From: Haliotis asinina
Lineage: Eukaryota
DNA: 64,000 bases
Direction: 5' to 3'
Assembly: GCF_037392515.1 (NCBI RefSeq)
Contig: NC_090280.1
Coordinates: 54,237,037 to 54,301,036 of the forward strand
Shown here: piece by piece, positions 10,396 to 56,724 of the stretch
How positions within the stretch are numbered: position 1 is the stretch's first letter
Layout of the letters: each line of letters opens with the position of its first letter
The notes under the pieces: generated by a model
Databases searched by the model: none
What the model was told of the DNA's origin: nothing
Seen by the model: only the letters and a program-made list of their open reading frames with translations
Translations under genes and position numbers: made by a program

Positions 10396-10405
10396 TGGAG
10401 CTGGC

Positions 10406-10440
<35 letters not shown>

Positions 10441-13240: not shown

Positions 13241-14589
13241 GCTCGAACGTACATTCGTGAAAATAGAATGTTATATCATTTGCTATCGGAGAGTGTTCAT
13301 ATTTGATTTTTTACGTACATTTTCATGTCTCAGGATTAATAAATGGTTAAACCTCCCTATACAAATCCAGTAAGAATGCATTGCGTCTTAAACTCAAAAC
13401 GAATACTCTGTGTAAAACGAACGACATATAACTAATTCATGTGCTGGGTTGCTATGAAGTTATATCATGCGCAGAACACCATATGTCCCAGTTGCATAAT
13501 GAGATGAAGCAAATGGTTGTTTTCCATTTAGATACATGACGTAAGGTTAGCGTGTTCCATTATTCCCAGTTGAGGTAAAACTCGTGAAATACATTCTTTT
13601 TTTTTTGTCTAACACTATTTCATCCTAACCTGTCATAACTGTCAGATGAAAGCACAAAACGTTGACGTCGGCGGCGTTCTGGTCATCACAACATACACTT
13701 CGTTGTGTTGACATGTCATGGGTAATGTCAGCGGAACTGAATGGAAATGCAACGTTGTGCGAACACTCAAGACTGGCTAGTTATGCCATTCCCTAAAAGT
13801 AAAGGATATTTCATTTTGCCAGCATACCACTAGTCAGTGCCAATACATATGAAAAGTGACATATATCCATACGGATGAAACGTTTCCAAAAGAATGCAAT
13901 AAACTGCCATGTTTTCCCTTAATCATTCTTCATCATCTCCTTCCTCCTTGGCTTCAGCATTTGCATTTTTTCATTCTTGTAAATCCAATATTCCATACTC
14001 TTTTGAATGGTATAGTTTTACAGCGTAAGTTGAATTATACAACGGTGCCCATTGTGTATAACAACAGATATTCACCCTCTATGTATATCATAGAATACAT
14101 GTACACAACTTATTCACCCACTACGTGTAATATAGAATACGCAAGATATTCAATTACTATACATAATATCCAAGATATTCACCCACTATGTGTAACATAG
14201 AATACGCAAGATATTCGCCCACGGTATATACAGAACCGCTACAGGAATATCACTCTACTCAAAAATGTTGCCAGATATGTTTCATCTTAATTTCAATTTC
14301 ATAAAATGTTGCCAGATACGTTTCATCTTAATTTTTATTTCAAAAAAATGTTGCCAGATATGTTTCATCATAATTTGAATTATTTTTCACATTTTTTTGT
14401 TAGCAAGACCTGGTTCGTAGCCAGTGTTCAAGCAAATTTTGCTTCAGATTCTGTATTTGATACAAAAACATCTCGTCAAAACGCTGTTACTGAAGTAATG
14501 ATGGGAAGAGGTTTTTGTGCGTGATTCATGAAAATGACAATGCACGAGCATCCCGAGGCGTTGTCCCTGTAAGAAGTGCCACCGAACAT

Positions 14590-25062: not shown

Positions 25063-25316
25063 TTTGTAAAGCGCCATCCTGTATTCTGTAATATAAAGTT
25101 ATGTGATTGTTCTACCTTGTCTGTTTCTTCTTTGAGTGGCATTTAGAAGCTGGTGTGATGAATAACAAGGGGAGTTCATTGGATATAAAACTTCTTTAAT
25201 GTAATATTTAATATAACGTGAACCACGTTTCGGTGTAGCTTCTACCACTGTCACCTAGCAAGTGACATTAATATGAGCGACATGTAACAGCTCTTTTTGC
25301 GGAGCGAATGACGACG

Positions 25317-25321
25317 AAACC
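25317..25321. repeat. Target-site duplication, left copy ('aaacc')
   Basis: Exact 5-bp direct repeat also found at 39625-39629, immediately outside both TIRs. A 6-bp reading is possible with one mismatch (gaaacc vs taaacc). Confidence 0.6.
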
Positions 25322-25642
25322 AGTAGTATAGGGAATGATAGTTCTGGACCACTTTCACAAAATGCCTCTACAAAGCCTTATTTAGTAAATAAGGCTTTGG
25401 TTGGGCCATTAGCTCTTGCTACTATTACCCCTACTACAAAATTACTGTGCCTTGGTAGGAGGTAACACTGTGCCGTACGGTACGATCAATAATTCTTCTC
25501 TTACAAATCCCCTACCCGGCCCATCCCTCAAGTAGTACAAGTTAGGTTCGTCGGCTTTCATATCCACTTTATCTATGTTGTAAGTTTTGACTGACCATAT
25601 AGGATCGGTGGCCCGCTTACGGCTATCGCCCTCGTGTTCCCC
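25322..25642 (+). repeat. Left terminal inverted repeat of the Polinton (321 bp)
   Basis: Reverse-complement of 39304-39624 with only a few mismatches, e.g. gcccgctt/gctcgctt, taaataagg/taattaagg and gggccattagctcttgc/gggctattagctcatgc (about 98% identity). Begins with AG. Confidence 0.85.
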
Positions 25643-26410
25643 CGGCTGGTATAGATACCTCACTAGGGCCCTATCTGGTATCTGTTTCTCCTTCCCACGC
25701 AATGGAGCGGCCGACTCTGCAACTATTGATTTTAGTTTGATAGCGTCTGCCGGTTTCTTACCGGTGAGACGGGTGACTTCATGGTTGATTGCCGACACCA
25801 CCTTGGGTAACCTCGTGACCCATTCAGTCGATCGTTTTCCAGGGGTGGCCATCTCCCTAGCATACTGATAGCCGAACAAGCGTTCAGCCAAAGTCCTATT
25901 AAATCTCTCAACTATGGCTTGGCTGCGATGGGCTCCGGCCGTGCCACGCCTGACCTTTGTATCGTGTTTGGCTAGCAGTTGTGACACGGCACCCATGAAC
26001 TCCCGTCCGGGGTCAACTTGCAGCTCTGTTGGCCACGTCAGCGGACTGCGTTTGTATATACGTTCGAATCCTCTGGCTACCTGGGCCGAATCTTTCGTGG
26101 TCAAGGGTTCGGCTTCCTTGTAACGACTGGCTACATCCACTACGGTTAAGGCATACTTGTACCTCTTGTCGTGGGGTAGGAACAGTAGGTCTGCCTGGTG
26201 AATGCTATTAGGTGTGTTAATACCGAACCTCCTTCTAGGCACGTAGCGTGGTGCCGGCAAATAGATCTGCCACAGGGCTTGTTTTTCAAGCCACGCTTTG
26301 GCTTCCTCCGGGGGTACTCGCGCTAGTTTAGCTAGCTTATCTACTGCGCTAGCTCCTTTCCAGTACCCACGCGGGCTGTAGTAAATAGCCTCAAATTTTT
26401 TCATGTCCAT
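25442..26410 (-). CDS. Retroviral-type (rve) DDE integrase, 322 aa
   Basis: ATG start. DDE triad context: ...SIHQADLLFLPHD..., ...ELQVDPGREF... and ...SQAIVERFNRTLAERLF..., which is the typical rve catalytic core. The 3' 200 nt lie inside the left TIR. Overlaps the pPolB stop by 20 nt. Confidence 0.85.
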   Translation of the reverse strand: MDMKKFEAIYYSPRGYWKGASAVDKLAKLARVPPEEAKAWLEKQALWQIYLPAPRYVPRRRFGINTPNSIHQADLLFLPHDKRYKYALTVVDVASRYKEAEPLTTKDSAQVARGFERIYKRSPLTWPTELQVDPGREFMGAVSQLLAKHDTKVRRGTAGAHRSQAIVERFNRTLAERLFGYQYAREMATPGKRSTEWVTRLPKVVSAINHEVTRLTGKKPADAIKLKSIVAESAAPLRGKEKQIPDRALVRYLYQPGEHEGDSRKRATDPIWSVKTYNIDKVDMKADEPNLYYLRDGPGRGFVREELLIVPYGTVLPPTKAQ

Positions 26411-29400
26411 ACGCGTATGTGTTTATACCATTAATAGCTATCCAACGTTTCGTGTCCATAGGCGATAGGGACGTCTTGTTTATAGTCAGTCCGTATATCT
26501 TATGCCCATCACTTCTAAGTGTGTTCATTTTATGTCTAAAGGTACGGGTCTTGAACAGGGCTTCCTTGAATCTGGCGTGTTTGATGTGTTGTTTCACCAC
26601 ATACTTCTTAACCCCCTTCGCCTTCCGGATCTCACTATTGTCGGCTTTCGGTATGGAGTACATCTTAGGTCTCAAACCTATGTACTCGGCTATGGGCGTG
26701 CCAGCACACTCGTCCTTCATCTTACCTAGGACCTTTTTATTTACAGTACTGTGTATGGCATGGGTCTTAGGGTAATCGCTGGTGTCGTATAAATCGAGGT
26801 GTTTTTTCATGTCCTCGTACACGTCCTCGGTTCGAATCTCCATCAGCAGGGAATCCGTGTCAGTGTACAGCACTTCACACCTGTCGCCGTACTGTTTCTT
26901 GAGCTCGTTGTAGTAAAAGTCGTACATCAGGTGTTTGGATAAATCGAGGATGCTCATCCCCACGTAAACAGGCCGGTTAAATTTTATGTGGCTTTTCTTC
27001 ATGTGTAGGGCAACCAGGTTGTCTGTGAATATCTTACTACGGTTGAATGCCGGACTGGCTATCAATCTCCTGAGCTTGTCTTCCTCACTCGACCGAACCA
27101 GCTTCACGGTCACGCGTTTCCTCAGGTTCTCCATAGTCTTACCAAACACCGAGTTGTTCATGAGCTTGTAGAGATTTTTCTCAAAATCACTGGTGGCTTT
27201 TTTTCGTAGGTCTGTGTTCATTCTGATGTAGGGCTCCATCCATGGACTCTGGTCGAACATGAGCACCCTGTGTATTTTGGTCAGCCTCATACCCAACGAC
27301 AGGTACAGCTGTAGGTTGCGATAGTGAACGATGTACTTGGTCTTATTTATTAAGTTAGGCACGAGTTTTTCAACGTCTGTCACACGCCCACCTGACAAGT
27401 TATGTTGGTACTCAGACATCCAGTCTGGGTTAACCCTCATACGTTCGGGTGCAAGGGGATAGCTGTTGTGCGATGTGTGTAATTCCTTGGGATACTCTAA
27501 GTCAACTTCGAGGATATAACCTTTGTTCGAATCTGGTGCAACCCCCATAACATCAACGTGGGGTACCCATTCGAATCCCCCTGTAGGTAGATACTGACTC
27601 ATGGCCCAGCCGTAGAGGTTGTTTGCGTCGAGGTAGAGAATGTGATTGGTTGGTTTGTTAGGATCGTAACCTTTCACGTATTGATTATTTGCTTTCGCGT
27701 ATCGTTTGGATGCCATGGAAATCCCACCTCGCAAGCCTTTCTCAATGAATAGGTGCATGTCGTAATCTGTGAGCAATTCTAAATTAACTCCGGTCTTTTT
27801 AAGCAAGGCGTCCCACGACAGACCTGGGCTGGTGTAATACCATGCGGGGTCGAGTTTATACTGCTTTAAACATGTCTGCCGAAACGTTTCAAACACGTCG
27901 GCTAACAGCAGTACATCTGTCCTCAAGTACAGGTCGTGATAATCACCCAGGTTCTTACAACCCAGTTTATTCCATACGTTAGTCGCGTGCGAGTAATCAT
28001 CTCGTGAGACGGACGCCTCATTCAGCTTGCTATAAAAGCAGTCAATAGGGGGTAGTCTGGTCTCGGTGAACTTGGCCCAACTATCCATGTACTCATAGGG
28101 GTACACACCCTTCCTCATAAGCAGGGGTCTAGTCTCGGCGTCTGTGTATCGATCGGTGATAGGGAAGGTATTGTTGGCCTTGACCAGACTGTCGAGTGAC
28201 GACAGGAGGAACTGAAACGAGTCAATGAACCTAAGTCCGTTTAAGCTGAAGGAGATGTATCTTTCCATGTTGTTGGGGATGCACGTTATATTACCATCGA
28301 TTTTCGCGATGGCCTGCATGATCAAGTGTGAGTCGTACCCTCTCAAGTTGTGAAAGACAACGGGGATGTTTATTGTCTTAGGGTTGATTTTAAGCTTGAG
28401 GTTGCACGCGTTGTGAGCGGCGCCTCTATACTTACCAGTTATGTGGCAGTGATCTCTCACCGAATCACCGTTAAGTGGTGAGTCGCACACGTGACAGTTA
28501 GTGCTACTAGCGTGAGCTAGCCTGTCGGCTCGGGTCATACGCATGGGAGCGATTCTATACAATGCATTCCTAATAATTTTTTCTTCCTCCTGCAAACACT
28601 TTAGAAACCTTTCAGCCGCGTCAGGGCCCCTATACACTACCGGAGCTTTAGTTTCCCCGTCACAACGGACGACAATGTATCCAAAACCGCAGGCCTTATG
28701 TTCCTGGGTTTTGTGGGTGAAGCTACCACCACTGGGGGCCTCGCCGGCGGCAGCCACTAAGGCTTCGAAGTCGGCGTATATGATGTAAGGTACAGACATT
28801 TGGTTCTTGTGGTTACTGAATTTTAGGATATTTTCACCTTCCTTAGGCATGTCGACTCGTATGGCTGTCTGCCCCACACCTTGGCAATCATCCCGGTGGG
28901 ATTCTAATAAATCAGCTCGACTGAAACCGTGTAGGCATCGTACACAAAAGTGTTTTTCCCCAACGTGTTTCGACTGGTCGTGCAACAACCGGCTGAGATG
29001 TTTTATCCACGTGTAGTGATACTTTTCACCTCGCTGGATCATGAATATATTGATAACTTGGCAATCCTTCACCGTGCTGACCCTGTGTACTATTGTTGTG
29101 TTACCTTCATACCCAAAGACATTTATAGCCAGATTATTCTGTTTTTCTACTTTAGTGATCTGGGATATGGGGGTGGGTTCATCTATACCATCCCAGTTGA
29201 GCCCATCGTCTTGGGGATAGCTAGAAAGCCTATCTGAATGAGTGCCAGCTGGAAATAAGGCTGACCTGATAGCTAACCTCAGGCAATCATTTCCTCTATT
29301 CTTAACGTTTACTATGGCATGTTTGTTCCTATAGTAGGGAGGCAAGGCTAGGTATGACCCGCCTCTGAACGGCACGTAGTTAGCTATGTCTAGATAGACA

Positions 29401-30086
29401 TTATCGATTTTATCTACAGCCCACCCGGACCCCAAGTGTGTGTAGCGTTCTAGGTATTCTCGTATCTGCTGAAAACTATTATCGATTGATGCGTCAATGG
29501 TCTCTGCATGTGTGACGACCTCTTGTTGACCTCGGAAGTAAGGCTGAACATACTCAGTGGTACTCCCAACCTGCTTATCGAGCGACATTTTCACTGTGAT
29601 CTGAAACTTGATACTTCCTAGATTATTTAGTTCCTGGTTGACCTTATCAGCTATCAGAGGCTTGATATCTATAATGTCTATGTTTCTATCAACGTGCATG
29701 CGCCAACCTCTCAAATAGTTGCCTACAGCGCGCTCAGTGCTCACGAACTGTAGGTCAATAGCTCTATTCTGCCGTAATAATTCTAAAAGCTGTGGTTTTC
29801 TCATACGGGAATACCCGCCTAAACCCAAATCGTGTGCCTCGGCTTTCAGTTGTTTTACAGTGGGAGGTTTTGCTACGGGGGCATGTGATAACAATGCGGT
29901 TAACCCGGCTCTCCCCAGGTTTGAATAACCCGTGTGCCCAAGCTGTTTTGCTTGAGCTTTTAATTGTTTTACCGTAGGAGGGGCTTCTAAACCTAGTAAT
30001 CTCAACAATGCTGACTTCCGCATTCTAGAATACCCGATCACACCTCTCTGTTTTGCGACCCTCTTGAGCTCGCGCACAGTAGACAT
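26391..30086 (-). CDS. Protein-primed family-B DNA polymerase (pPolB), about 1231 aa
   Basis: Exonuclease motifs: Exo I IIYADFEALV, Exo II VFHNLRGYDSHLI, Exo III YHDLYLRTDVLLLADVF. Polymerase motifs: A YLDANNLYGWAM, B KLMNNSVFGKT, C VLYTDTDSLLM. The N-terminus has three tandem SAP-like repeats of about 35 aa. The ORF track extends to 30110 using a TTG start; the first ATG is at 30084-30086 (MSTVRELKR...). Confidence 0.9.
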   Translation of the reverse strand: MSTVRELKRVAKQRGVIGYSRMRKSALLRLLGLEAPPTVKQLKAQAKQLGHTGYSNLGRAGLTALLSHAPVAKPPTVKQLKAEAHDLGLGGYSRMRKPQLLELLRQNRAIDLQFVSTERAVGNYLRGWRMHVDRNIDIIDIKPLIADKVNQELNNLGSIKFQITVKMSLDKQVGSTTEYVQPYFRGQQEVVTHAETIDASIDNSFQQIREYLERYTHLGSGWAVDKIDNVYLDIANYVPFRGGSYLALPPYYRNKHAIVNVKNRGNDCLRLAIRSALFPAGTHSDRLSSYPQDDGLNWDGIDEPTPISQITKVEKQNNLAINVFGYEGNTTIVHRVSTVKDCQVINIFMIQRGEKYHYTWIKHLSRLLHDQSKHVGEKHFCVRCLHGFSRADLLESHRDDCQGVGQTAIRVDMPKEGENILKFSNHKNQMSVPYIIYADFEALVAAAGEAPSGGSFTHKTQEHKACGFGYIVVRCDGETKAPVVYRGPDAAERFLKCLQEEEKIIRNALYRIAPMRMTRADRLAHASSTNCHVCDSPLNGDSVRDHCHITGKYRGAAHNACNLKLKINPKTINIPVVFHNLRGYDSHLIMQAIAKIDGNITCIPNNMERYISFSLNGLRFIDSFQFLLSSLDSLVKANNTFPITDRYTDAETRPLLMRKGVYPYEYMDSWAKFTETRLPPIDCFYSKLNEASVSRDDYSHATNVWNKLGCKNLGDYHDLYLRTDVLLLADVFETFRQTCLKQYKLDPAWYYTSPGLSWDALLKKTGVNLELLTDYDMHLFIEKGLRGGISMASKRYAKANNQYVKGYDPNKPTNHILYLDANNLYGWAMSQYLPTGGFEWVPHVDVMGVAPDSNKGYILEVDLEYPKELHTSHNSYPLAPERMRVNPDWMSEYQHNLSGGRVTDVEKLVPNLINKTKYIVHYRNLQLYLSLGMRLTKIHRVLMFDQSPWMEPYIRMNTDLRKKATSDFEKNLYKLMNNSVFGKTMENLRKRVTVKLVRSSEEDKLRRLIASPAFNRSKIFTDNLVALHMKKSHIKFNRPVYVGMSILDLSKHLMYDFYYNELKKQYGDRCEVLYTDTDSLLMEIRTEDVYEDMKKHLDLYDTSDYPKTHAIHSTVNKKVLGKMKDECAGTPIAEYIGLRPKMYSIPKADNSEIRKAKGVKKYVVKQHIKHARFKEALFKTRTFRHKMNTLRSDGHKIYGLTINKTSLSPMDTKRWIAINGINTYAYGHEKI

Positions 30087-30144
30087 CGTGTTTACACCTA
30101 AGAGAACCAATGTCTAATTGGTTCACAGTAAGGGGAGGTAACTC

Positions 30145-32141: not shown

Positions 32142-32764
32142 TTAGCACACTCTATATGCTACTGGTTGGTCGGTCTTTAGTACGAGCTTAGCGTGTTTAG
32201 TTTCAGCGAGCTGTTTCTTCACCCGTTCCCGTTCTAATTTACTCATCACATCGTTCTCTCTCAAACACTCCTCAAACGAATCCCTGTCCTTGCAGTGAAA
32301 TAAGGCCACCCATCGCGTCTGCTCCCTGAGGTCTTTCAACACCGAGTTGAACTTCTGCGTTAGCACCCAGACGCTGTGATTTGCATGCCGGCCGGAGAAG
32401 GCCAGGTACGATAGCATGTCTCTCTTTTTTGTTATCTCGCGATTAGCGCTGCAGTCGTCTAATATGAACAGCGTCGGTTCTCCTTTAAATTTCTCGTGAA
32501 GAGCTTTCAACCAGTCCTGCAGGCGTGTTCCAGGGTCGATTTTGTGTACGTCCGGGTCATCACCCAAGGTCGCGCGTACGTTTTATTCATGCTCAGAGTA
32601 GGGCACATGATAACGATGTTATCGAACACATCCTTGTAATAACCCTCTAACATATCCAACACGAAAACGGTCTTCCCACAGCCAGTCTGCCCGCACACTA
32701 TGGCGCAGTGTGGGTCAGTGGGTAACCCCAGGGGGGTGTGGGGTGTGGGGGGGGTACCCCCCAT
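32142..32764 (-). CDS. FtsK/HerA-superfamily (poxvirus A32-like) DNA-packaging ATPase, disrupted by a 1-nt frameshift
   Basis: Walker A CGQTGCGKT in the 85-aa ORF 32507-32764. Walker B TLFILDDC in the 141-aa ORF 32142-32567 (TTG start). The frames differ by 1 nt. Adding one T to the T4 run at 32581-32584 (A4 on the coding strand) fuses them: ...MCPTLSMNKNVRATLGDDPDVHK... Confidence 0.8.
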
Positions 32765-34020
32765 CAGTAGATGGCTTGCACGAATCTCCCATTGTCTATA
32801 TTAAGTTGCGCGTCCATAATAACGTACAGATATAATTTCAACTTACCAGCAGTTTGAGCCTTCTTAGTAATCTGGATGGTTATCCCTTCGCTGCCGTTAT
32901 CTATACGGCGCCCGCTACCGTGCAGTTTATCATCATCCGTGGATCGCATGTCCAACCATAGGGCGTACTTGGTGGTCAGGTATTCACCGATCTGCACGGA
33001 GCTTAGGTCCAGGTCCTTTGTTATATAATCCCCCACTGGTAGCTTTTTTATCTCATCCCACTGCTGGTGTGGTCTCATACCATGACTGAACAGCTGGTTG
33101 GGCACGCCCTCGATGGTCACTTCCACCTTTTCAATCTCGGGGTTGAAAAACTTCTCGCTGTCCCTCTGGAATGGCTCGTAATCCTCCACGGGGACGACCA
33201 GGATACCTTTCATCGATCTCGCCGGCACGTTCAGGTTGATATTCCACACAGTGTCGCTCTTATCTTGCACGACTGATCTATGTCTCAGTACGCGATCGTA
33301 CAGGATAGCCATCTTCCCAGAGTACTGGCTTCGAACCTGCCTGGCCAGCTCCGGGCTAGTGACCATGTCGAACTCCAGAGAGATGTTGTCTATGGCATAA
33401 CTGGCCTCATCACCGTTCGGAGTACGCACTACTTTGCTATAGTCGTTAAACGTGAGCTCGTATTCGAGCCTATCACCCAGCGCGGCCTGGTAAAACGGCG
33501 CGTGTCCCGTGAGCAACTCGAAGTCGAGCGGCACGCAGAATCGATTCCCGTATGCTAGAGCGATGGCCTTTTCACCGGCCGATAGCTTGTCTTGCTGGTC
33601 TTGCGTGAAGACATACCCTATGCGCGCCCGGGTTGATTTGCTGATACCCTGGTACACATCATTGACTCGTTCTCCATCGCTTTTCCAGAGATCCTTGTAG
33701 CAGTGAAACACGTCGCTGTCGTCGATGCTCAGCACCTCGTTACCGCTGATCTTGACGGTCGTTTTCTTGATGATAGCTCGCCCCACGTTCCGCACTAGCT
33801 CGCGTTTATCGTTGACGGAGGTCAACGTGATATTGAACGCCAGTCGAACAGTGCCTGGTACAATGAGGTCATTCTCACCAAGGTTTGGAAATCTAACCAG
33901 CAGAGTTTGATTCTGGTCTATCTTGCTGGGATTATTGGTGATGGTCACCGACTGGCGCACGGCTCTGGCACCTAATGGCTCTCTCAATTTTCTGAAAGGA
34001 TCTAATTTTCTGCCGTACAT
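32764..34020 (-). CDS. Candidate major capsid protein (double jelly-roll type expected), 418 aa
   Basis: Largest unassigned ORF, immediately upstream of the ATPase with an ATGA stop/start overlap. Size fits Polinton and virophage major capsid proteins. No motif-level proof. Confidence 0.45.
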   Translation of the reverse strand: MYGRKLDPFRKLREPLGARAVRQSVTITNNPSKIDQNQTLLVRFPNLGENDLIVPGTVRLAFNITLTSVNDKRELVRNVGRAIIKKTTVKISGNEVLSIDDSDVFHCYKDLWKSDGERVNDVYQGISKSTRARIGYVFTQDQQDKLSAGEKAIALAYGNRFCVPLDFELLTGHAPFYQAALGDRLEYELTFNDYSKVVRTPNGDEASYAIDNISLEFDMVTSPELARQVRSQYSGKMAILYDRVLRHRSVVQDKSDTVWNINLNVPARSMKGILVVPVEDYEPFQRDSEKFFNPEIEKVEVTIEGVPNQLFSHGMRPHQQWDEIKKLPVGDYITKDLDLSSVQIGEYLTTKYALWLDMRSTDDDKLHGSGRRIDNGSEGITIQITKKAQTAGKLKLYLYVIMDAQLNIDNGRFVQAIY

Positions 34021-34053: not shown

Positions 34054-34364
34054 TGGATGAAGATATACCTATGGATGAGATGCCGGGCGCTAGTGCCCAG
34101 GCATATGATGAGCAGGAGACCTCATTTACTAGTTCACCATTGAACCAAGAACTCTTGGAAACAACGGTAAATGATTATTTCGAAAGTTTAAGAAGAGATA
34201 AAAACTACGTTGAACCACAGGGTCGATACCATAAGGATTTTTTTATTGATACAAAGGGTGTTCTACGCCTTAAGTCTGACCCAGGGGTTGACCTCTTTAA
34301 CAAGAGCAATAAAAAACCACTGGCCTTGTCAACTCTAGCCAGCCGCTATGGTGTAAAAATCTAA
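34054..34364 (+). CDS. Hypothetical acidic protein, about 103 aa (ORF track begins at 34020 with a TTG start)
   Basis: First ATG at 34054 (MDEDIPMDEMPGAS...). Starts the + strand block, divergent from the capsid gene. Confidence 0.3.
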
Positions 34365-34366
34365 AC

Positions 34367-35200
34367 ATGAATGATTACGGTGGTGCAATACCTAAGGCCG
34401 TTAAAGAAGATCTGCAAGCTACCAGATCCCACCTCACCACTAGAGATGAAATGACACCACAGCGTGCTACAGAAGCCTCAGACAGCATAGAAAAACTGTT
34501 GAGCACCTACTGGGACAAACCGTTACCGGGGTTTGACTTTCCGGTAAGGGAACTGCGCGGCTTAGACGAAGCCGTGAAACGCGTGCGTGGAGAACTCGTG
34601 AACAACATGGGGAAACTGAACGAAATCGACGAGCACATCGCTAGGGAAAAAACCAAACTCAACGAAACTGAAAACGATGATATGAAGCGCCGTATCAATG
34701 AACGACTACGCGATTTAGAAGACGAGAGACGTACACGATTGGAATCCGCTTCCTCGAATCGTGAACAGCTTCGATCCCAGATCAGTCGTATTCGGGAAAC
34801 AATCGATAGAATACTGAATGAGGATACAACTTTAGCCAACAGGATTCGGATATTGTTCCGGGAGCAAGGGATCACCATCGCCAGTATTCTGACTGCATTG
34901 GGTTTTATCATATCAACCCTGGTGGTGTCACTGACGGGGGGAACCCCCACACATGGCGGAGGGGGAACTCCCAGCGGTGGTGGGGGTGTTAAAGACTGGA
35001 TTAAAAAACTCGGGGAAGGCCTAGCTAAACTGGCTGGTAAAGCCGCCGAAGCCCTTCCCGGCATACTGGGTAGCATCGTCTCGTGGTTGTTGAGCGCTCT
35101 GTCTAAAACTGCCATGTGGCTCAGTGAAAACCTGTGGGCAGCCATCGTCGCCGTGGCGGGTCTGGTGTACGTAGCGGCTAAGAAATCTTTAACCAAATAA
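34367..35200 (+). CDS. Coiled-coil and Gly-rich membrane protein, 277 aa
   Basis: ATG start. Long charged heptad-like region (REKTKLNETENDDMKRRINERLRDLEDERRTRLE), then a hydrophobic helix, a GGTPTHGGGGTPSGGGG linker and a second hydrophobic C-terminal region. Confidence 0.4.
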   Translation: MNDYGGAIPKAVKEDLQATRSHLTTRDEMTPQRATEASDSIEKLLSTYWDKPLPGFDFPVRELRGLDEAVKRVRGELVNNMGKLNEIDEHIAREKTKLNETENDDMKRRINERLRDLEDERRTRLESASSNREQLRSQISRIRETIDRILNEDTTLANRIRILFREQGITIASILTALGFIISTLVVSLTGGTPTHGGGGTPSGGGGVKDWIKKLGEGLAKLAGKAAEALPGILGSIVSWLLSALSKTAMWLSENLWAAIVAVAGLVYVAAKKSLTK

Positions 35201-36341: not shown

Positions 36342-36370
36342 ATTATAATATATAAATTATATATTATAAT
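36342..36370. promoter_or_regulatory. 29-bp AT-rich divergent spacer (attataatatataaattatatattataat)
   Basis: Lies between the minus-strand ORF start at 36341 and the + strand ORF start at 36371. Pure A/T with TATA-like runs. Confidence 0.3.
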
Positions 36371-37024
36371 ATGTACATAACACTTCCAGGAATAACGAGC
36401 GGTGAGGCCGTTCAGCTGACGCACGCGATCGATAACACGTCAGGTCAACTCGAAGTCGCACTCTGCGATATCACCTACCTACCGCAATGGACTAACATCA
36501 ACGCCAGCAACAATAAGCTGTTCGTCAGTGGAACTCGCAGTCAGATAACTGACGGCTACTACAGCGTGTGCTCTCTAAACGACGAGGTCTTCAAACCCCT
36601 GGGAGCCGAACTCAAGATGAACGACTCAAACGGTACAGTGGTGTTAATCAACAACGGAAGAACCTCCTTGAGGCTAGGCCGACCATTAGCGAGGATACTC
36701 GGTATGTCTCCTGACGAGATAAAACCAACAACAACCGTCACAGGCACGAAGTTACCCGACCTAGTACCGTACCGAGAGCTGTACATTCATCTCGATCAGG
36801 TGAGCACAACGTACAACATTCAAGGAGGTCACCCTTCCACTATACTGAGAGCAGTGCCGGTGAAAACTGAGAAATTCAACGACGGTAGAACCGAGTCATT
36901 TTCACCACGGCAGTATAAGAGATTAACCCAGGGCAACATACCTGAGCTGACAATATCGGTGTTAGATATAAATCATAATCCTGTAAATATAGGATACCTC
37001 AGCTTAACGCTTCACGTAACATGA
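36371..37024 (+). CDS. Hypothetical protein, 217 aa; size compatible with a single-jelly-roll minor capsid (penton) protein
   Basis: ATG start. Its stop overlaps the next ORF's start in an ATGA (37021-37024). Confidence 0.35.
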   Translation: MYITLPGITSGEAVQLTHAIDNTSGQLEVALCDITYLPQWTNINASNNKLFVSGTRSQITDGYYSVCSLNDEVFKPLGAELKMNDSNGTVVLINNGRTSLRLGRPLARILGMSPDEIKPTTTVTGTKLPDLVPYRELYIHLDQVSTTYNIQGGHPSTILRAVPVKTEKFNDGRTESFSPRQYKRLTQGNIPELTISVLDINHNPVNIGYLSLTLHVT

Positions 37025-37935
37025 CCAGCGCACAAGGGCCCGGAGTGAAAAAATGCGTCAATATCGGGATCTCCGACCTCGGAGACACACGCGGTTTCGA
37101 CGCTCCCGGAGTAGATGGTAAATCGTACGCCTTGCAACTGAAAAACAACATTTACAAACGCGTTGAAATCCCCTCCGGTGGAACCCTAAGTGATATGATA
37201 GATACCACAAGAGCAACAGTCAACACTAAGTACACCCTTGTCAACACCGGTGATGACAACTGGGTAATATACCCATCGTTCGGGGGTAAACTGTTCGACT
37301 TAGACGATGTTGAGAGCACTACCGTCGTCAAAAACAAACCATATATGCTCGTCTTCACCGAAGATGACAAGTGGGTGTTGTTACCCGATAAAGACGACTG
37401 GTTGATCAATATTAGACTCATCTCCCCTTACGTGTTCACAGATAACAAAGACAACCACCTAAACAAAGTCGTGAACAATGGAACCCTGCTCGTGGCTTAC
37501 GTCCCAACTCAAAGACGTAGCGTAGTCGTCAGCCCAGCCAACACTGCGGTAGCCCACATGCTATCGAGTAAACCGGCCGTACAAAACGTGAAATTGCAGT
37601 TGGTGTCTGAATTCGAAGGCGTGACCAAGGTACTAGATAATATAACGATAAACGGAACACTGATCATCAAAGTCTACCTAGGGGAACCATCGGGGAATAA
37701 TATCGAGATCGTGAAGGGGATCAAACTCGGGTGGGGTAAACAACATCAGTTTCAAATTTGTAATGTTTACGTGCGGGGGGGTGTCGACCCCAAGACCAGT
37801 CTACAGGGGGTCAACGTGATCGTGGAAAATAAGATATCACTAATCAATATCTTCCTGCCTGACAACATACACTTCATGGGTATGAAGTTAACCCCTGAAT
37901 TATTATCAGAAAACCAGTTGGAAATTATATCATAA
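37021..37935 (+). CDS. Lineage-specific protein P1, 304 aa; paralogue of the next ORF
   Basis: Shares an N-terminal LGDTRGFDAPG motif, a W(L)INI(R)L(I)SPY(V) block and a C-terminal LSENQLEIIS with ORF 37946-38644. Confidence 0.45.
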   Translation: MTSAQGPGVKKCVNIGISDLGDTRGFDAPGVDGKSYALQLKNNIYKRVEIPSGGTLSDMIDTTRATVNTKYTLVNTGDDNWVIYPSFGGKLFDLDDVESTTVVKNKPYMLVFTEDDKWVLLPDKDDWLINIRLISPYVFTDNKDNHLNKVVNNGTLLVAYVPTQRRSVVVSPANTAVAHMLSSKPAVQNVKLQLVSEFEGVTKVLDNITINGTLIIKVYLGEPSGNNIEIVKGIKLGWGKQHQFQICNVYVRGGVDPKTSLQGVNVIVENKISLINIFLPDNIHFMGMKLTPELLSENQLEIIS

Positions 37936-37945
37936 TAGTATAATA

Positions 37946-38644
37946 ATGACTAGTCATCATCCCAACACTACGCTTAACGACCTGGGAGATACGGAGGGAT
38001 TCGATCAGCCTGGTGAGGAAGATGAATTATACATCCTGCACTTCAAAGACAACGTGTACAGACGGGTGTCGTTATCAGATTTTAAAGAGCCCAAATGGCT
38101 GATCAACTTAACACTCACCTCACCTTATATCACAATAAACATAAATACGTGGATGATCTCTAAGATTAGGAACAACGGTATCTGGCCCGGGGATTTCATT
38201 CCGGAGAGGGAATTAGCATTCAAGATAGCTACTGCTGGTGCTGAAAAAAATATATTAAATTCTGGACCAAAAAATAAATTAACATTTAGCTATAATACTC
38301 ATAACATAAATCTTGTTAATAGAATATTCTCCCCTTTCACACTCATCATAGAAGTCTTCTTTACGTCTTTACTACATGAAAACATCTCAAGAGTACACCA
38401 AATTTTACCCGGGGTGTCAATACACTGGTATGACGAACAACACACATTCAAATATTGTCGTATTGTTATACAACAGAATACCACGGGTCCTATAAACAGC
38501 TTAATAAGCCTCAGTGGGGTTTTTATTACAACAGAAAAGTCTATTAGCCTCTCACCTATTACCCTGACTAGTAGTCTAAAACTTGTAGACTTCAAATTCA
38601 TTGATAAAGTATTAACTGAAACCCAATTAAAATATCTTTCATAA
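37946..38644 (+). CDS. Lineage-specific protein P2, 232 aa; shorter paralogue of P1
   Basis: LGDTEGFDQPG, WLINLTLTSPYI and a C-terminal LTETQLKYLS. Tandem duplicate of the previous ORF. Confidence 0.45.
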   Translation: MTSHHPNTTLNDLGDTEGFDQPGEEDELYILHFKDNVYRRVSLSDFKEPKWLINLTLTSPYITININTWMISKIRNNGIWPGDFIPERELAFKIATAGAEKNILNSGPKNKLTFSYNTHNINLVNRIFSPFTLIIEVFFTSLLHENISRVHQILPGVSIHWYDEQHTFKYCRIVIQQNTTGPINSLISLSGVFITTEKSISLSPITLTSSLKLVDFKFIDKVLTETQLKYLS

Positions 38645-38657
38645 TATATATTATAGG

Positions 38658-39275
38658 ATGGGTCTGTACCCAGTCGTAGAGGAAGTAGCGAAGACGCTGG
38701 AAACCGTAGATGGGTTCCGCTTGAGGCAGTTATGTGATGTGAAACGTCAACTAGAACAAGACCGTGACACGCGGAAAGCTCTATGTAAGAAGTACAATAG
38801 AGCTTTCAATATCGTGGACGGGGCTGACACTACCCTTATGGCAACCAGCATGGGACTAGGGGCGGCAGGCGTTGGGTTGTTAACCACCATCGTGGCTGCA
38901 CCTATAGTGCTAGGTATTGAAATAACGGCTGGGGTGACAGGGTTGGTAGGGTTGGCGCTTAAGTTAGTATCACGCAGACTTAATCGTAAGGCATTGAAAC
39001 ACGACGAGATCAGGGTTCTGGCTGAAGCAAAGCTGAACACAGTGAGTGAGCGTATTTCCACGGCACTCTCTGACAGTAAGATCTCAGAAGAGGAGTTTCG
39101 TTCAATCCTCTCTGAACTCACAAAATATAACGGAATGAAACAAGATATTCGGTCCAAGTCTCGTAAGTCTGCTATCAGCGAGGACGAGAAAAAAAAGTAC
39201 ATAGAACAGGGAATACAAAAAGCCCAGCAAGCCTTTATTACGAACACCAAAGAGATCATAGGCGGTTCACGTTAA
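38658..39275 (+). CDS. Hypothetical membrane protein, 205 aa
   Basis: ATG start. Central hydrophobic pair (GLGAAGVGLLTTIVAAPIVLGIEITAGVTGLVGLAL) flanked by charged regions. Last ORF before the right TIR. Confidence 0.4.
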   Translation: MGLYPVVEEVAKTLETVDGFRLRQLCDVKRQLEQDRDTRKALCKKYNRAFNIVDGADTTLMATSMGLGAAGVGLLTTIVAAPIVLGIEITAGVTGLVGLALKLVSRRLNRKALKHDEIRVLAEAKLNTVSERISTALSDSKISEEEFRSILSELTKYNGMKQDIRSKSRKSAISEDEKKKYIEQGIQKAQQAFITNTKEIIGGSR

Positions 39276-39303: not shown

Positions 39304-39624
39304 GGGGAACACGAGGGCGATAGCCGTAAGCGAGCCACCGATCCTATATGGTCAGTCAAAACTTACAACATAGATAAAGTGGATATGAAAGCCGACGAAC
39401 CTAACTTGTACTACTTGAGGGATGGGCCGGGTAGGGGATTTGTAAGAGAAGAATTATTGATCGTACCGTACGGCACAGTGTTACCTCCTACCAAGGCACA
39501 GTAATTTTGTAGTAGGGGTAATAGTAGCATGAGCTAATAGCCCAACCAAAGCCTTAATTACTAAATAAGGCTTTGTAGAGGCATTTTGTGAAAGTGGTCC
39601 AGAACTATCATTCCCTATACTACT
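39304..39624 (-). repeat. Right terminal inverted repeat of the Polinton (321 bp)
   Basis: Reverse-complement match to 25322-25642 and ends with CT. On the + strand it encodes a copy of the last 66 codons of the integrase (...GEHEGDSRKRATDPIWSVKTYNIDKVDMKADEPNLYYLRDGPGRGFVREELLIVPYGTVLPPTKAQ*). Confidence 0.85.
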
Positions 39625-39629
39625 AAACC
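39625..39629. repeat. Target-site duplication, right copy ('aaacc')
   Basis: See left copy. Confidence 0.6.
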
Positions 39630-50089: not shown

Positions 50090-53000
50090 GGTTTTTCTTA
50101 TGATGGTGGATAATGATTAGCATTGCTGTTGATGATGATGGTGACAATTGATTGAGGAGGTTGTTGTCGGTGATGGTGATAAACGATTAAGAATGTCGTT
50201 GATGATGGTTGTTAATGATTGGGAAGGTTTTTGTTGCTGGTAATGACTAGGATGTCTGTTGTTGATAATGGTGGTTAACGATTAGGAACGTTCTTGCTGG
50301 TAATGACTAGGATGTCTGTTGTTGATAATGGTGGTTAACGATTAGGAACGTTCTTGCTGGTAATGGTCGTCAATGACTAGGATGTCTGTTGTTGATAATG
50401 GTGGTTAACGATTAGGAACGTTCTTGCTGGTAATGGTCGTCAATGACTAGGATGTCTGTTGTTGATAATGGTGGTTAACGATTAGGAACGTTCTTGCTGG
50501 TAATGACTAGGATGTCTGTTGTTGATAATGGTGGTTAACGATTAGGAACGTTCTTGCTGGTAATGGTCGTCAATGACTAGGATGTCTGTTGTTGATAATG
50601 GTGGTTAACGATTAGGAACGTTCTTGCTGGTAATGGTCGTCAATGACTAGGATGTCTGTTGTTGATAATGGTGGTTAACGATTAGGAACGTTCTTGCTGG
50701 TAATGGTGGTTAATGATTAGGAACGTTGTTGCTGGTAGTGGTCGTTAATGGTCAGGATGTCTGTTGTTGATAATGGTGGTTAACGATTAGGAACGTTCTT
50801 GCTGGTAATGGTGGTTAATGATTAGGAACGTTGTTGCTGGTAGTGGTCGTTAATGGTCAGGATGGCTGTTGTTGATAATAGTGGTTAATGATTAGGAACG
50901 TTGTTGCTGGTAATGGTCGTTCATGATTAGGAGGACTGTTGTTGCTAATTGTGGTTAATCATTAGGAACGTTGTTATTGCTGATGATGGTCGTTAATGAT
51001 CAGGATGGCTGTTGTTGATAATTGTGGTTAATCATTGGGAACGTTGTTGCTGGTAATGATCGTTAATGGTCAGGATGGCTGTTGTTGATAATAGTGGTTA
51101 ATGATTAGGAACGTTGTTGCTGGTAATGATCGTTAATGATCAGGATGGCTGTTGTTGATAATAGTGGTTAATCATTAGGAACGTTGTTGCTAATGATCGT
51201 TAATGATCAGGATGGCTGTTGTTGATAATAGTGGTTAATCATTAGGAACGTTGTTGCTGGTAATGATCGTTAATGATCAGGATGGCTGTTGTTGATAATA
51301 GTGGTTAATCATTAGGAACGTTGTTATTGCTGATAATGGTCGTTAATGATCAGGATGGCTGTTGTTGCTAATTGTGGTTAATCATTAGGAACGTTGTTGC
51401 TAATGGTCGTTGATGATCAGGATGGCTGTTGTTGATAATAGTGGTTAATCATTAGGAACGTTGTTGCTAATGATCGTTAATGATCAGGATGGCTGTTGTT
51501 GATAATAGTGGTTAATCATTAGGAACGTTGTTGCTGGTAATGATCGTTAATGATCAGGATGGCTGTTGTTGATAATAGTGGTTAATCATTAGGAACGTTG
51601 TTATTGCTGATAATGGTCGTTCATGATCAGGATGACTGTTGTTGCTAATTGTGGTTAATCATTAGGAACGTTGTTGCTAATGATCGTTAATGATCAGGAT
51701 GGCTGTTGTTGATAATAGTGGTTAATCATTAGGAACGTTGTTGCTGGTAATGATCGTTAATGATCAGGATGGCTGTTGTTGATAATAGTGGTTAATCATT
51801 AGGAACGTTGTTATTGCTGATAATGGTCGTTAATGATCAGGATGGCTGTTGTTGCTAATTGTGGTTAATCATTAGGAACGTTGTTGCTAATGATCGTTAA
51901 TGATCAGGATGGCTGTTGTTGATAATAGTGGTTAATCATTAGGAACGTTGTTGCTGGTAATGATCGTTAATGATCAGGATGGCTGTTGTTGATAATAGTG
52001 GTTAATGATTAGGAACGTTGTTGCTGGTAATGATCGTTAATGATCAGGATGGCTGTTGTTGATAATAGTGGTTAATCATTAGGAACGTTGTTGCTGGTAA
52101 TGATCGTTAATGATCAGGATGGCTGTTGTTGATAATAGTGGTTAATCATTAGGAACGTTGTTGCTGGTAATGATCGTTAATGATCAGGATGGCTGTTGTT
52201 GATAATAGTGGTTAATCATTAGGAACGTTGTTGCTGGTAATGATCGTTAATGATCAGGATGGCTGTTGTTGATAATAGTGGTTAATCATTAGGAACGTTG
52301 TTGCTGGTAATGATCGTTAATGATCAGGATGGCTGTTGTTGATAATAGTGGTTAATCATTAGGAACGTTGTTATTGCTGATAATGGTCGTTAATGATCAG
52401 GATGGCTGTTGTTGCTAATTGTGGTTAATCATTAGGAACGTTGTTGCTAATGATCGTTAATGATCAGGATGGCTGTTGTTGATAATAGTGGTTAATCATT
52501 AGGAACGTTGTTGCTGGTAATGATCGTTAATGATCAGGATGGCTGTTGTTGATAATAGTGGTTAATGATTAGGAACGTTGTTGCTGGTAATGATCGTTAA
52601 TGATCAGGATGGCTGTTGTTGCTAATTGTGGTTAATCATTAGGAACGTTGTTGCTGGTAATGATCGTTAATGATCAGGATGGCTGTTGTTGATAATAGTG
52701 GTTAATGATTAGGAACGTTGTTGCTGGTAATGATCGTTAATGATCAGGATGGCTGTTGTTGCTAATTGTGGTTAATCATTAGGAACGTTGTTGCTGGTAA
52801 TGATCGTTAATGATCAGGATGGCTGTTGTTGATAATAGTGGTTAATGATTAGGAACGTTGTTGCTGGTAATGATCGTTCATGATCAGGATGACTGTTGTT
52901 GCTAATTGTGGTTAATCATTAGGAACGTTGTTATTGCTGATAATGGTCGTCAATGATCAGGATGGCTGTTGTTGCTAATTGTGGTTAATCATTAGGAACG

Positions 53001-53235
53001 TTGTTGCTGGTAATGATCGTTAATGATCAGGATGGCTGTTGTTGATAATAGTGGTTAATGATTAGGAACGTTGTTGCTGGTAATGATCGTTAATGATCAG
53101 GATGGCTGTTGTTGCTAATTGTGGTTAATCATTAGGAACGTTGTTGCTGGTAATGATCGTTAATGATCAGGATGGCTGTTGTTGCTAATTGTGGTTAATG
53201 ATTAGGATGGTTGTTCCTGATGATGGTGGGCATTT
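50090..53235. repeat. Satellite array, about 3.15 kb, 70-bp unit made of two diverged 35-bp half-units, with periodic variant units (higher-order structure)
   Basis: Unit ttgctggtaatgatcgttaatgatcaggatggctgttgttgataatagtggttaatcattaggaacgttg, repeated about 45 times. Variant units (ttattgctgataatggtcgt...gctaattgtgg) recur every few repeats. Lies in intron 4 of gene B. Confidence 0.85.
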
Positions 53236-54207: not shown

Positions 54208-56724
54208 AGCAGCATCTTGTAGTCTTCAGTATAATGAAACACGATCGCTCCTCCATGTCTGTGTCTTATGTACCTTGATACAAGGCAAACCTCATTCAGT
54301 ACAAAGGCATATGGTGATGTGATGTGGTGTTAGATGAGTGATGTGATGTATTTCAGTCGTGATATGAAGTGGTTTTTGTTTGATGTTTGCGGAAGTGAGG
54401 CTGATGAGAATTGTGTAATGTGAAATGAGTTCGTGTGTGATGAGATGTGTGCGACGTAAGATGAGCTGGTGTGTGATGAGTGATGAGTAATGTGAGATGA
54501 CTTGGTGTGAGATGAGAGGTGTGTGATGTAAGATGAGCTGATCTGTGATGAGTGATGTGTAATGTGACTTGAGCTGGTGTGTGATTAGAGGTGTATAATG
54601 TGAGATTAGCTGGTGTGTGATGAGAGGTGTGTGAAGTTGGTGTGTGGTGAGTGATGAGTATTGTATGATGAGTCGCTATGTGATGAGTGATATGAGATTA
54701 GTTGGTGAGTGATGAGTGATGTGATGCGTGATGACAGGTGTATGATGTGAGTTGAGCTGGTATGTGATGAGTGATGAGTAATGTTAGATGTGAGTGATTC
54801 AGGTTGTGTTGTCTCGGATGAGTGATGGACCACTGAATGATGTGTTGTGTGACGCAAAATATTGTGACGTCAGGTTGATGTGTGCGGAAAGATAACATCC
54901 CCGGTCCGTATTTGTGAAATGGTATTTACCGAATTATACACTTCACCAAAATAATTCAAATATATTTACTGTAGACACTCGGCAATGATTGGTGTGTATT
55001 GGTCGTCTACCAACCGGTCGACTTCATGTGGGAGGAGAGCCCTGAGCTAGTCTTAGACATTTAATACCAGGGTGAGACCTACGAACGTGGATACTGTGTT
55101 AATAAACCTCCAAACATAAACCATGCCGAACCGGGATTCGAACATCGATTGTAGATTCCGTTCACGCCCAAGGGAAGCGACTCTTCAAAGGTGACAGCTG
55201 ATATGAAGAATTATGGCAATGGTCAGCAACACATGTATTAATGGTAATACAATATATATTACACAGAACAAAGGTAATGGTCAGCACAGATCAACTGGGT
55301 TCAATATAAAGATTATTGGCATCTTAAAGATATCTTTATGTCTATATTGATATAGGCCTTAGAAGAAGAATAAAAAACGCAGACGAATTACTCGGGTCCC
55401 GAAAAGACAGGAAATATTTAATAAGTATCTTTAGATTACTTCTGGCTACATGAGTAGATTCTTCCAATTCGAAAATGACTGACTAGTACGGGAAAAAGCT
55501 CGCAAACGTCATGTGTCACCCATTGTAGAAAACAATACGATAAAATATATGAAACATATAAGAAGTTTCATTACGCCATTATTGGAAATATTAACAACAT
55601 TAATTTACAGACATGGTATTTTAAATATTCAAAATAATCATAGCATCAATTCAAGACATGAATAATTAATTTATGAAATATGTATTTCATTGCAGGATAT
55701 CAGGAATTGAATTCGGACATCATAACAAAACATGATGTATAAATATAATTAAATCCTACCATGATAGCATTAATGTCGATATGGACAAATATTTTAAGGA
55801 TATCTTTAATTCAATTCAACATCTCCTTCATTTCATGATATCACGAATCGTATTGTAAATATATAATAACTATATTTAAGATATCTAGAACTTTTATTCA
55901 AGGTACATGCACACATGTATGTCTAACTTATTCAAGATATATTTTATCTGTATCTTTCTATCACTAAATAATATCGCATAAAATGTGGTAACGTCTGGTC
56001 AGATAACATGAAGCTGATGATACGATTTATGTTTGAATACATTGATTTGTTTATTCATTCACATTATTCGGTAATTAAAACATGTACTCTACCATACTAA
56101 CAACATTTTCCATAATGAAAATCTTTTATTGTGCGGGATAAATCAACAGCATGCCACATCCACTACAGATGAGTAAAAACAACAACAAAAGGAAACATTT
56201 TTAACATAAAATACATACAAACGCATACGTTTATGAAACAACAGAGAAACAGTAGATTATTGGAAATGAAAATGAGCTGGTAAATGTTCCTCCACAGATC
56301 GACAGGGAGTGACAACTGCAAGAACAACGGACAGTTATATTTATGTGTGACGATTAAAGAATTCTTGAACTAAAGACAGATTTGAAATTATAATTTATCT
56401 CATAATCATATTTAGCTCATCCTGCTTTTATTGAAATTGATCTATATGTGGATCTCAACAATCGGGGCCTAGATTTTGTAACCTCTTTTCGCGCTAAGAT
56501 AGTCGTAAGTTAATGGTAATGTTAGTGAAAATCTAGGTCCTGGATCTTTCAACTCAGCATTCCAGTGCATGGCCCATTTGGAAATTTTCTTCCACTTTAC
56601 TTGCATTCGAACGTGACGGTCTGTCCAACGATGAACTATCGTTTTCCAATTACAGAGGGTCGTAGAATCACCTGGAGTGGTGAAGTAAAGATAGAATTAC
56701 TAGGTCATCACCTGTCCTGGCTGA

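Follow-up and report, generated by a model that had tools for sequence, protein, structure and literature searches.

A tandemly duplicated virion-module gene family with a predicted lectin-type domain as a candidate attachment protein in a Polinton of Haliotis asinina

Introduction

PW reportedly goes back to Kapitonov and Jurka in 2006 as a conserved protein of Polinton/Maverick elements and, to our knowledge, conserved genes of the PW/PZ type have been without an assigned function since that year. We know of no infectious particle of an animal Polinton or adintovirus that has been characterised, nor of an account of how such viruses recognise cells. Barreat & Katzourakis (2021; PMC8097293) used PW as a core gene while calling it 'uncharacterized', and the gene order of vertebrate Mavericks is given there as integrase, PX, PW, major capsid protein (MCP) and protease. 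Surveys of adintoviruses describe conserved unknown 'Adintoc' proteins as well as duplicated Penton, Hexon and Cah genes (bioRxiv 10.1101/2024.03.25.586562); the gene family that is the subject of this paper is not mentioned in them. We describe it here from a 64,000-nucleotide stretch of Haliotis asinina (assembly GCF_037392515.1, contig NC_090280.1, positions 54,237,037 to 54,301,036 of the forward strand; below, "the window", with positions counted from its first letter), where two of its members, P1 and P2, lie next to each other in a Polinton.

In our interpretation, a conserved virion-module gene of animal Polintons and adintovirus-like viruses gave rise to P1 and P2 by tandem duplication, and the two would encode a penton-docked attachment protein in a long and a short form; our confidence in this proposal as a whole is evenly balanced. 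A literature search found the family motifs in no relevant context, and no published function or solved relative.

Results and discussion

P1 and P2 are paralogs with separate reading frames

P1 and P2 are adjacent open reading frames (ORFs) on the + strand, of 304 and 232 residues, as had been reported in an earlier note made from the sequence alone; their coordinates and lengths were verified (Table 1). BLASTP returns a single collinear alignment over nearly the whole length of both proteins (24% identity, E=2e-17), a similarity that is far beyond chance. The three motifs to which the note had drawn attention are all present and follow one another in the same order in both ORFs: LGDTRGFDAPG in P1 and LGDTEGFDQPG in P2, then WLINIRLISPY and WLINLTLTSPY, and finally LSENQLEIIS and LTETQLKYLS. 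Over their first 50 residues the two proteins are 51% identical, over the C-terminal domain (C-domain) 30%, and the ~70 residues by which P1 exceeds P2 are all in one block.

Since the two ORFs are neighbours on the same strand, only 10 nt apart, they could be thought of as exons of one spliced gene. Each of them, however, has its own ATG, its own stop and the complete termini of the family, from the N-terminal Met to the C-terminal helix, and we therefore regard them as two genes; P1 is closed by TAA and an immediately following in-frame TAG, related elements have a single stand-alone ORF of this kind, and vertebrate Maverick genes have been reported to be intron-free (PMC8097293). For practical purposes a spliced gene is ruled out, and we give it next to no credence.

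The size difference reflects repeat-unit copy number

The family consensus reads L.DLGD.EGF..PG...Y.L.L..g.YkR, followed by W..(D/N)I...SPY and a beta-rich C-domain of ~180 residues, and both P1 and P2 conform to it. Conservation within the family is highest in the first N-terminal unit, unit A, whose column entropy is 1.85 bits as against 2.75 bits in the C-domain. A hidden Markov model (HMM) of the second N-terminal unit, unit B, which was built without P1 or its ortholog P0001, detects three units in P1 (A, B' and B, with conditional E-values of 1e-5, 6.5e-5 and 3e-10), three in P0001 (independent E-value of 2.2e-6 for B') and one in P2, whereas two is the number in the majority of relatives. 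By hhalign, the profiles of units A and B are themselves related (probability 92.8%, E=4e-7). The ~70-residue size difference between P1 and P2 is thus a case of copy-number variation, with two extra hairpin units of ~35 residues each; the insertion in P1 that had been described in the earlier note stands as a difference in size, but not as an unrelated insert. We also considered the extra segments of P1 as copies of unit A and rejected this, as the unit-A HMM detects no extra units in P1.

P2 keeps 10 of the 11 nearly invariant residues of the family, in an alignment that includes P2 itself; the missing one is G6.

Two other possible relationships were discarded. P1, P2 and all other family members are without a Pfam match to WG_beta_rep (PF14903), and kinship with that family was rejected as an artefact of multi-repeat summation. 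The sequences P0039, P0060, P0078, P0084 and P0094 are multi-repeat WG_beta_rep proteins of bacterial type which score weakly against the P1-rich A1 profile in the hairpin-unit region, and the bacterial-type proteins fail to match the unit-B HMM. Homology to an 'L.DL.DV' repeat of phage fibres was unsupported, with no phage tblastn match and no PDB match with the unit profile.

The C-domain is predicted to be a lectin-type beta-sandwich

AlphaFold modelling of P1 with a 54-sequence family alignment gave a predicted local distance difference test (pLDDT) score of 84.5 and a predicted template modelling (pTM) score of 0.69, with pLDDT at ~96 over residues 127-304. In the model the C-domain is a curved antiparallel beta-sandwich that superposes on members of the concanavalin A (ConA)-like lectin/glucanase fold superfamily, while each of the N-terminal units contains at most a short helix and a beta-hairpin. 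The best solved structural match of the P1 C-domain is a phage tailspike, gp15 of cyanopodophage Pan3 (PDB 9vyh), a receptor-binding protein with a ConA-like head that is 9% identical to the P1 C-domain; sialidase lectin domains, calnexin/calreticulin and many carbohydrate-binding modules (CBMs) rank lower, the matches being mostly ConA-like or related carbohydrate-binding sandwiches. Matches in BFVD are phage ConA-like, LamG and tail-fibre proteins. Neither a beta-helix nor an adenovirus-type knob was found in P1, and its top 60 structural matches include no penton and no adenovirus fibre knob; among the folds that the earlier note had proposed to look for, the lectin type was thus recovered, while the beta-helix and the knob were not.

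Among phage records and PDB chains there was no match to P1 or P2 at the sequence level, and the resemblance of the modelled domain to phage heads may be convergent or very ancient. ConA-clan Pfam families (Laminin_G, Lectin_leg-like, GH16 and others) gave no match in the 54 members at E<=1. Another structural match, at 6-13% identity, is the N-terminal lectin-like subdomain of the clostridial neurotoxin Hc region (tetanus/botulinum); this subdomain is not itself the ganglioside-binding site, and the match therefore says little about the ligand.

Only W127, N152, G154 and G233 are nearly invariant in the C-domain, which argues against a conserved catalytic site. We accordingly find it quite improbable that P1 and P2 are non-structural lectin-like or enzymatic (glycanase or lyase) factors which modify host glycans, or virion-associated depolymerases: the C-domain shows no conserved acidic or other catalytic constellation, the top-scoring structural matches are non-catalytic binding modules, the N-terminus has no signal peptide as judged from its sequence, and both the gene position and the stop/start overlap with the penton gene described below point to a virion protein.

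The family is widespread and sits in the capsid gene block

An exhaustive search of 1.84 billion cluster representatives with a three-sequence profile (P1, P2 and an 84% identical ortholog) returned 105 representatives at E<=1e-3, 33 of them at E<=1e-10, mostly as intact ORFs of 260-300 residues. Against the profile of the 54-sequence family alignment (A2), which includes both proteins, P1 scores E=1e-81 and P2 E=5e-47. None of the family representatives carries a name or a Pfam domain, P1 and P2 themselves have no Pfam match, and PDB sequence searches with the two proteins found nothing. Word-indexed homolog searching yielded no match for P2; with P1 it retrieved the 84% ortholog from a Logan contig and, in Haliotis rubra, an 'ankyrin' gene model of which the first exon matched; an indexed search with the 54-sequence alignment returned only 3 proteins, and scanning JGI metagenome contigs and IMG/VR with a 10-sequence alignment revealed no relatives.

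The H. rubra gene model (locus L001, positions 10001-13320 in QXJH01000396.1; NCBI 'putative ankyrin repeat protein RF_0381', P0002) is chimeric: an ankyrin-repeat gene has been joined to the N-terminus of a P1 homolog, frameshifted and part of a degraded Polinton, which supplies the first ~110 residues.

Genomic context was recovered for eleven loci (L001-L011). In L004, L006, L007 and L011 the block runs ATPase(-), MCP(-), ORF277-like(+), ORF387-like(-), penton(+), family member(+), ORF205-like(+), and it equals the window gene for gene wherever homology was tested. L008 and L009 have the same layout by gene size, position and strand, their 237-residue ORF falling below the penton-profile threshold, and in the PLA2-encoding elements L003 and L010 the family member adjoins the double-jelly-roll capsid gene. 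A position in the capsid block, beside the penton gene, the MCP gene or both, is therefore found in the window and in 8 other loci (L003, L004, L006-L011). The earlier note had taken P1 and P2 for lineage-specific cargo that matches nothing, a view that does not survive the 105 representatives and the capsid-module members in eight other loci; its placing of tandem paralogs at the end of a block of virion genes was borne out, and the block belongs to a Polinton. The family is accordingly a conserved gene of the virion module, and it is lineage-specific in its tandem duplication only.

Copy numbers were obtained by scanning the six-frame ORFs of every locus with the family profile. Two full members occur in this window only, one member each in L003, L004 and L006-L010, and L011 has one degraded copy in three frame-shifted pieces; the comparison with related Polintons for which the earlier note had called thus gives one member in the others and two in this lineage alone. 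The H. rubra locus L001 and L005, a contig of 412 bp with a P2 N-terminus of 89% identity, likewise have P1 followed by the beginning of P2. A one-unit protein, P0020, is the sole copy in L007, so that the short architecture of P2 is a viable form. The closest relative of the P2 C-domain in our library is the C-domain of P1 (28% identity), which itself is closer to those of the single-copy relatives P0003 and P0004 (33-37%), as would be expected if the gene was duplicated within the lineage and P2 then diverged at an accelerated pace.

The penton gene overlaps P1

ORF217, the gene directly 5' of P1, matches an HMM built from published PX sequences (Krupovic et al. 2014; PMC4028283, Additional file 5) at E=1.1e-18, and BLASTP aligns it with Polinton-1_SP PX at 4e-7; it is the penton of this Polinton subgroup. 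The penton stop codon overlaps the ATG of the family member (by ATGA, 4 nt, or by 8 nt) in the window and in L002, L004 and L006, which suggests co-transcription and perhaps coupled translation of penton and family member. A frameshift fusion involving the penton has been proposed for some adintoviruses (bioRxiv 10.1101/2024.03.25.586562). We rejected a programmed -1 frameshift that would fuse the penton to P1, since the last 150 nt of the penton gene contain no canonical slippery heptamer in any of the four loci and the frame offset between penton and family member varies among them.

A related possibility is that P1 and P2 are themselves a second and a third penton-type (single jelly-roll) capsomer. 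Duplicate Penton ORFs have been reported in some adintoviruses (bioRxiv 10.1101/2024.03.25.586562), and P1 and P2 do adjoin the penton gene and encode a beta-sandwich; the PX HMM, however, matches no ORF of the P1 family except P0066 and the L011 ORF that encodes it, both of which contain a penton C-terminus, and the P1 C-domain does not resemble the 8-strand viral jelly-roll of solved pentons. With pentons also missing from the top 60 structural matches, we rejected a penton identity for P1 and P2 and hold additional capsomers to be very improbable. Profile searches of ORF217, ORF387 and the P1/P2 family against PDB sequences gave no match.

The 14-kb adintovirus-like contig L003 encodes a full PX penton, 45% identical to Polinton-4_NV PX, together with a second, shorter PX-like ORF (positions 1506-2285 and 2857-3225); this pair may be an example of the 'duplicate Pentons' of adintoviruses. 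In P0065, P0066, P0068, P0069, P0074, P0097 and P0103 the family N-terminus is preceded by in-frame upstream sequence, which in some of them, P0066 and P0097 for instance, is a penton-like C-terminus; P0066, at least, derives from a degraded, frameshifted copy (L011, 9956-10555). The fused ORFs show the adjacency of the two genes and are no evidence for a natural fusion protein.

A candidate attachment protein with a long and a short form

Because the family combines a conserved N-terminal unit with a variable stalk and a variable lectin-type head, constantly lies among the capsid genes and has a start codon that overlaps the penton stop, we suggest that it encodes a capsid-anchored, probably vertex-associated attachment protein. 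The conserved N-terminus would serve for docking to the capsid, with the penton as the most likely site, while the hairpin units (zero to two beyond unit A, each a helix plus hairpin of ~35 residues) would form a stalk of variable length and the variable beta-sandwich head would bind a ligand on the host surface, probably a glycan. A duplication in the abalone-associated lineage left P1 with a long putative stalk of three units and P2 as a short form of one unit, whose AT-rich head has diverged strongly; the virus may thus carry two attachment specificities, much as some adenoviruses have a long and a short fibre. The idea of the earlier note that these are fibre, spike or receptor-binding proteins agrees with the predicted lectin fold and with the pattern of a conserved N-terminus and a variable C-terminus, though as to function it can be no firmer than our own. 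A more specific version, in which the family, possibly PW, is the vertex attachment protein of animal Polintons and adintoviruses, has an exchangeable head and is translated in a penton-coupled manner, and in which recombination brought in or reshaped the P2 head and so gave a second receptor specificity, as an independent parallel to the two-fibre adenoviruses, is one that we offer tentatively and consider rather doubtful.

It is unlikely, in our view, that the proteins are instead structural capsid accessories, cementing or decorating the facets or vertices with no part in host recognition, and that the duplication was neutral or had an effect on capsid stability. The family is always found within the capsid block and adjoins the MCP gene rather than the penton gene in L003 and L010, nearly all elements retain it as a single copy, as one would expect of a core structural component, and beta-sandwich decoration or cement proteins are common in double-jelly-roll viruses; yet a stalk that varies from 1 to 3 units is hard to square with a fixed position in a lattice, the combination of a most variable C-domain with a most conserved N-terminus is the usual pattern of attachment proteins and not of cement, and the structures that match best are a tailspike and modules that bind receptors or carbohydrates.

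Several observations nonetheless weigh against an attachment protein in two forms. Adjacency to the penton gene is not universal, as the penton lies elsewhere in L003 and L010 (~3.8 kb off in L010). The fold model is that of P1, with the fold of P2 assigned by homology; Foldseek finds nothing in the PDB at E<=1e-3, the matches are at the level of the fold, with 7-13% identity, and the ConA-like sandwich is very common and serves enzymes and chaperones as well. While paralogy, family membership, gene position, repeat architecture and fold class are observations, it is by inference that we arrive at virion incorporation, penton docking, oligomeric state, ligand binding and dual specificity. In the comparison with the 84% ortholog, the ratio omega of P1 (0.71) does not fall significantly short of 1 (p=0.26), and that of the penton is 0.42; such values would agree with P1 evolving faster, or with neutral drift following endogenisation. 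The Polinton copy in the window is slightly decayed, with a frameshifted ATPase gene. As for P2, it lacks the nearly invariant GPG...C tip of the N-terminus, it is full-length in this window only (the sightings in L001 and L005 are N-terminal fragments), and the compositional deviation of its C-domain could mean decay rather than specialisation. This C-domain (38090-38641) has GC and GC3 values of 0.35 each, with local GC down to 0.28, compared with a GC3 of 0.52 in the P2 N-terminus and of 0.48-0.64 in all other Polinton genes. The AT-rich tract is coextensive with the head domain of P2, and recombination or relaxed constraint could account for it.

These last points also bear on the alternative that only P1 is functional and that P2 is a duplicate in decay or without function, so that the two have no function in common. 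To the missing tip, the aberrant composition, the want of a full-length P2 ortholog and the ATPase that is already frameshifted one may add that the P2 C-domain has 13 family matches compared with 81 for that of P1. Such a decay is nevertheless rather improbable, for the 232-codon ORF of P2 is uninterrupted in an AT-rich sequence where stops arise readily, and P2 retains the nearly invariant residues, and the match to the family profile, that are given above. Between P1 and P2, pN is 0.45 and pS 0.75 (saturated; p=6e-11), and between P1 and P0003 they are 0.37 and 0.86; with pN this far below a saturated pS, P1 and P2 have been under long-term constraint at the protein level. (The dN/dS ratio between P1 and P2 that the earlier note had proposed was calculated as well and is uninformative, being undefined at saturated synonymous sites.) The recurrence of P1 followed by P2 in L001 and L005 and the one-unit form as the only copy in L007 likewise speak against decay, and terminal inverted repeats (TIRs) that are 99% identical imply that the ORF was intact in an active virus at the time of integration. 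We prefer to see in P2 the short form of a putative attachment protein.

The host element is a complete Polinton

Table 1. Features of the two genes, their neighbours and the ends of the Polinton, in positions of the window
Feature	Position	Strand	Remarks
P1	37021..37935	+	304 aa; long family member, three repeat units and C-terminal beta-sandwich (predicted)
P1 repeat unit A (DLGDTRGFDAPG...YALQLKNNIYKR)	37075..37176	+	residues 19-52; unit-A HMM E=5e-16
P1 repeat unit B'	37198..37278	+	residues 60-86; extra unit, absent in two-unit relatives
P1 repeat unit B (DLDDVE...PYMLVFTEDDKWVLLP)	37297..37395	+	residues 93-125; unit-B HMM conditional E=3e-10
P1 C-terminal domain	37399..37932	+	residues 127-304; predicted 13-strand beta-sandwich of the ConA-like lectin/CBM class, terminal short helix
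P1-P2 spacer TAGTATAATA	37936..37945	+	10 nt, AT-rich, read from sequence
P2	37946..38644	+	232 aa; short family member, one repeat unit and C-terminal domain
P2 repeat unit A	37970..38059	+	residues 9-38; unit-A HMM E=1.2e-16, unit-B HMM E=5e-5
P2 C-terminal domain	38090..38641	+	residues 49-232; homolog of the P1 C-domain, family HMM domain E=5e-34
Penton/minor capsid protein (PX class), ORF217	36371..37024	+	217 aa; directly 5' of P1
ATGA overlap, penton stop TGA/P1 start ATG	37021..37024	+	read from sequence
MCP (double jelly-roll, PY class)	32764..34020	-	BLASTP E=1.7e-85 to Polinton-N1_NV MCP
ORF205, conserved membrane-helix protein	38658..39275	+	follows the family member in related elements
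Left TIR	25322..25642	.	starts AGTAGT; AAACC just before; 321-nt arms 99% complementary
Right TIR	39304..39624	.	ends ACTACT; AAACC just after

P1 and P2 belong to a complete Polinton/Maverick of 14.3 kb, bounded by 321-nt TIRs of 99% identity and flanked on both sides by the 5-bp direct repeat AAACC, a target duplication. The terminal AGTAGT/ACTACT (with the flanking repeats, 25316-25327 and 39619-39629) is the end motif described for vertebrate Mavericks (PMC8097293), and the termini together with the direct repeat indicate a bona fide integration. The TIR contains the 3' end of the integrase gene (25442-25642; 39304-39505), the right TIR carrying an inverted duplicate that encodes the last ~66 integrase codons (...GEHEGDSRKRATDPIWSVKTYNIDK...PPTKAQ*).

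The element encodes an rve integrase, an A32-type packaging ATPase, the MCP, which has a weak Pfam Capsid_N match, the penton and several small conserved ORFs. An ORF of 1239 residues (26391-30110, -) is taken as the protein-primed PolB (pPolB) from its size and position; a Pfam search of it gave no polymerase match, and it has two Rho_N-type repeats at the N-terminus (E=2e-12) and an Endonuclease_7 match at residues 526-572 (E=1.8e-5). No gene for an adenain-type protease was recognised anywhere in the Polinton. The ATPase gene (32148-32746, -) is interrupted by one frameshift near 32558: its Walker-A portion (...CGQTGCGKT...) at 32746-32558 is in a different frame from a 141-residue ORF at 32142-32567, and the homolog in L004 is an intact ORF of 215 residues. 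ORF277 (34116-35197, +) has a coiled coil and C-terminal membrane helices; its counterpart in L004 has 412 residues, the N-terminal third matches the L004 protein separately (34116-34424), and the gene seems to be disrupted or N-terminally truncated here.

Homologs of ORF205 lie directly 3' of the family member in L004 (E=5e-79), L006 and L011; L007 has a probable counterpart, seen from the position of a 182-residue ORF, and the homolog in L003 (E=2e-25) sits elsewhere in the locus. The divergent spacer between ORF387 and the penton gene, ATTATAATATATAAATTATATATTATAAT (36342-36370), is 29 nt long, AT-only and nearly palindromic, and short TATAAT/TATTATA strings stand immediately 5' of the ATGs of P2 and ORF205; spacer and strings may be compact promoters.

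Beyond the Polinton, positions 39700-64000 of the window contain no ORF of at least 180 residues. A 70-bp satellite of ~42 copies (91% matches) at 50301-53219 accounts for the strong GC skew at 50-54 kb, and a smaller array of 36/72 bp lies at 54402-54632.

Comparison with known systems

Within Polintons, the closest counterpart of the P1/P2 family may be PW, by position: like PW, the family is a conserved protein of the capsid module whose gene neighbours those of the penton (PX) and the MCP. A member of the P1 family comes right after PX here and in six related loci, L008 and L009 being positional equivalents. In contrast to the PX-PW-MCP order of vertebrates, the MCP gene here is separated from PX by a distance of two genes and is read from the other strand; as regards a same-strand order of PX, family member and MCP, the member follows PX in the window, whereas in L003 and L010 it adjoins the MCP with PX elsewhere, and L011 is an element of the same type as the window, not of the vertebrate order.

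With its predicted lectin-type head, conserved N-terminal anchor and variable stalk, the family is a concrete candidate for the attachment protein of animal Polintons, and the tandem long and short paralogs would offer a natural contrast for studies on tropism. The 54-sequence alignment can seed a family profile that is missing from Pfam, and ORF217-type proteins can now be read as the penton of this Polinton subgroup. Should the attachment reading be wrong, P1 and P2 would still be ordinary conserved virion-module genes and not exotic cargo.

The closest parallel outside Polintons is found in the two-fibre adenoviruses, such as HAdV-F40/41 with their long and short fibres and the fowl aviadenoviruses with fibre-1 and fibre-2; adenovirus and Polinton virus belong to a common penton-bearing double-jelly-roll lineage. 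In these adenoviruses, as proposed here for P1 and P2, a conserved N-terminal tail is followed by a stalk of repeats and a variable globular head, the number of stalk repeats varies, and tandem paralogs provide a long and a short form. The details differ, however: the FNPVYPY-like penton-binding motif of adenovirus fibres is absent from P1, P2 and the family consensus, and neither protein has the triple beta-spiral shaft repeats of ~15 residues or the trimeric knob. We thus suggest that P1 and P2 are analogous to the adenovirus fibres rather than homologous to them.

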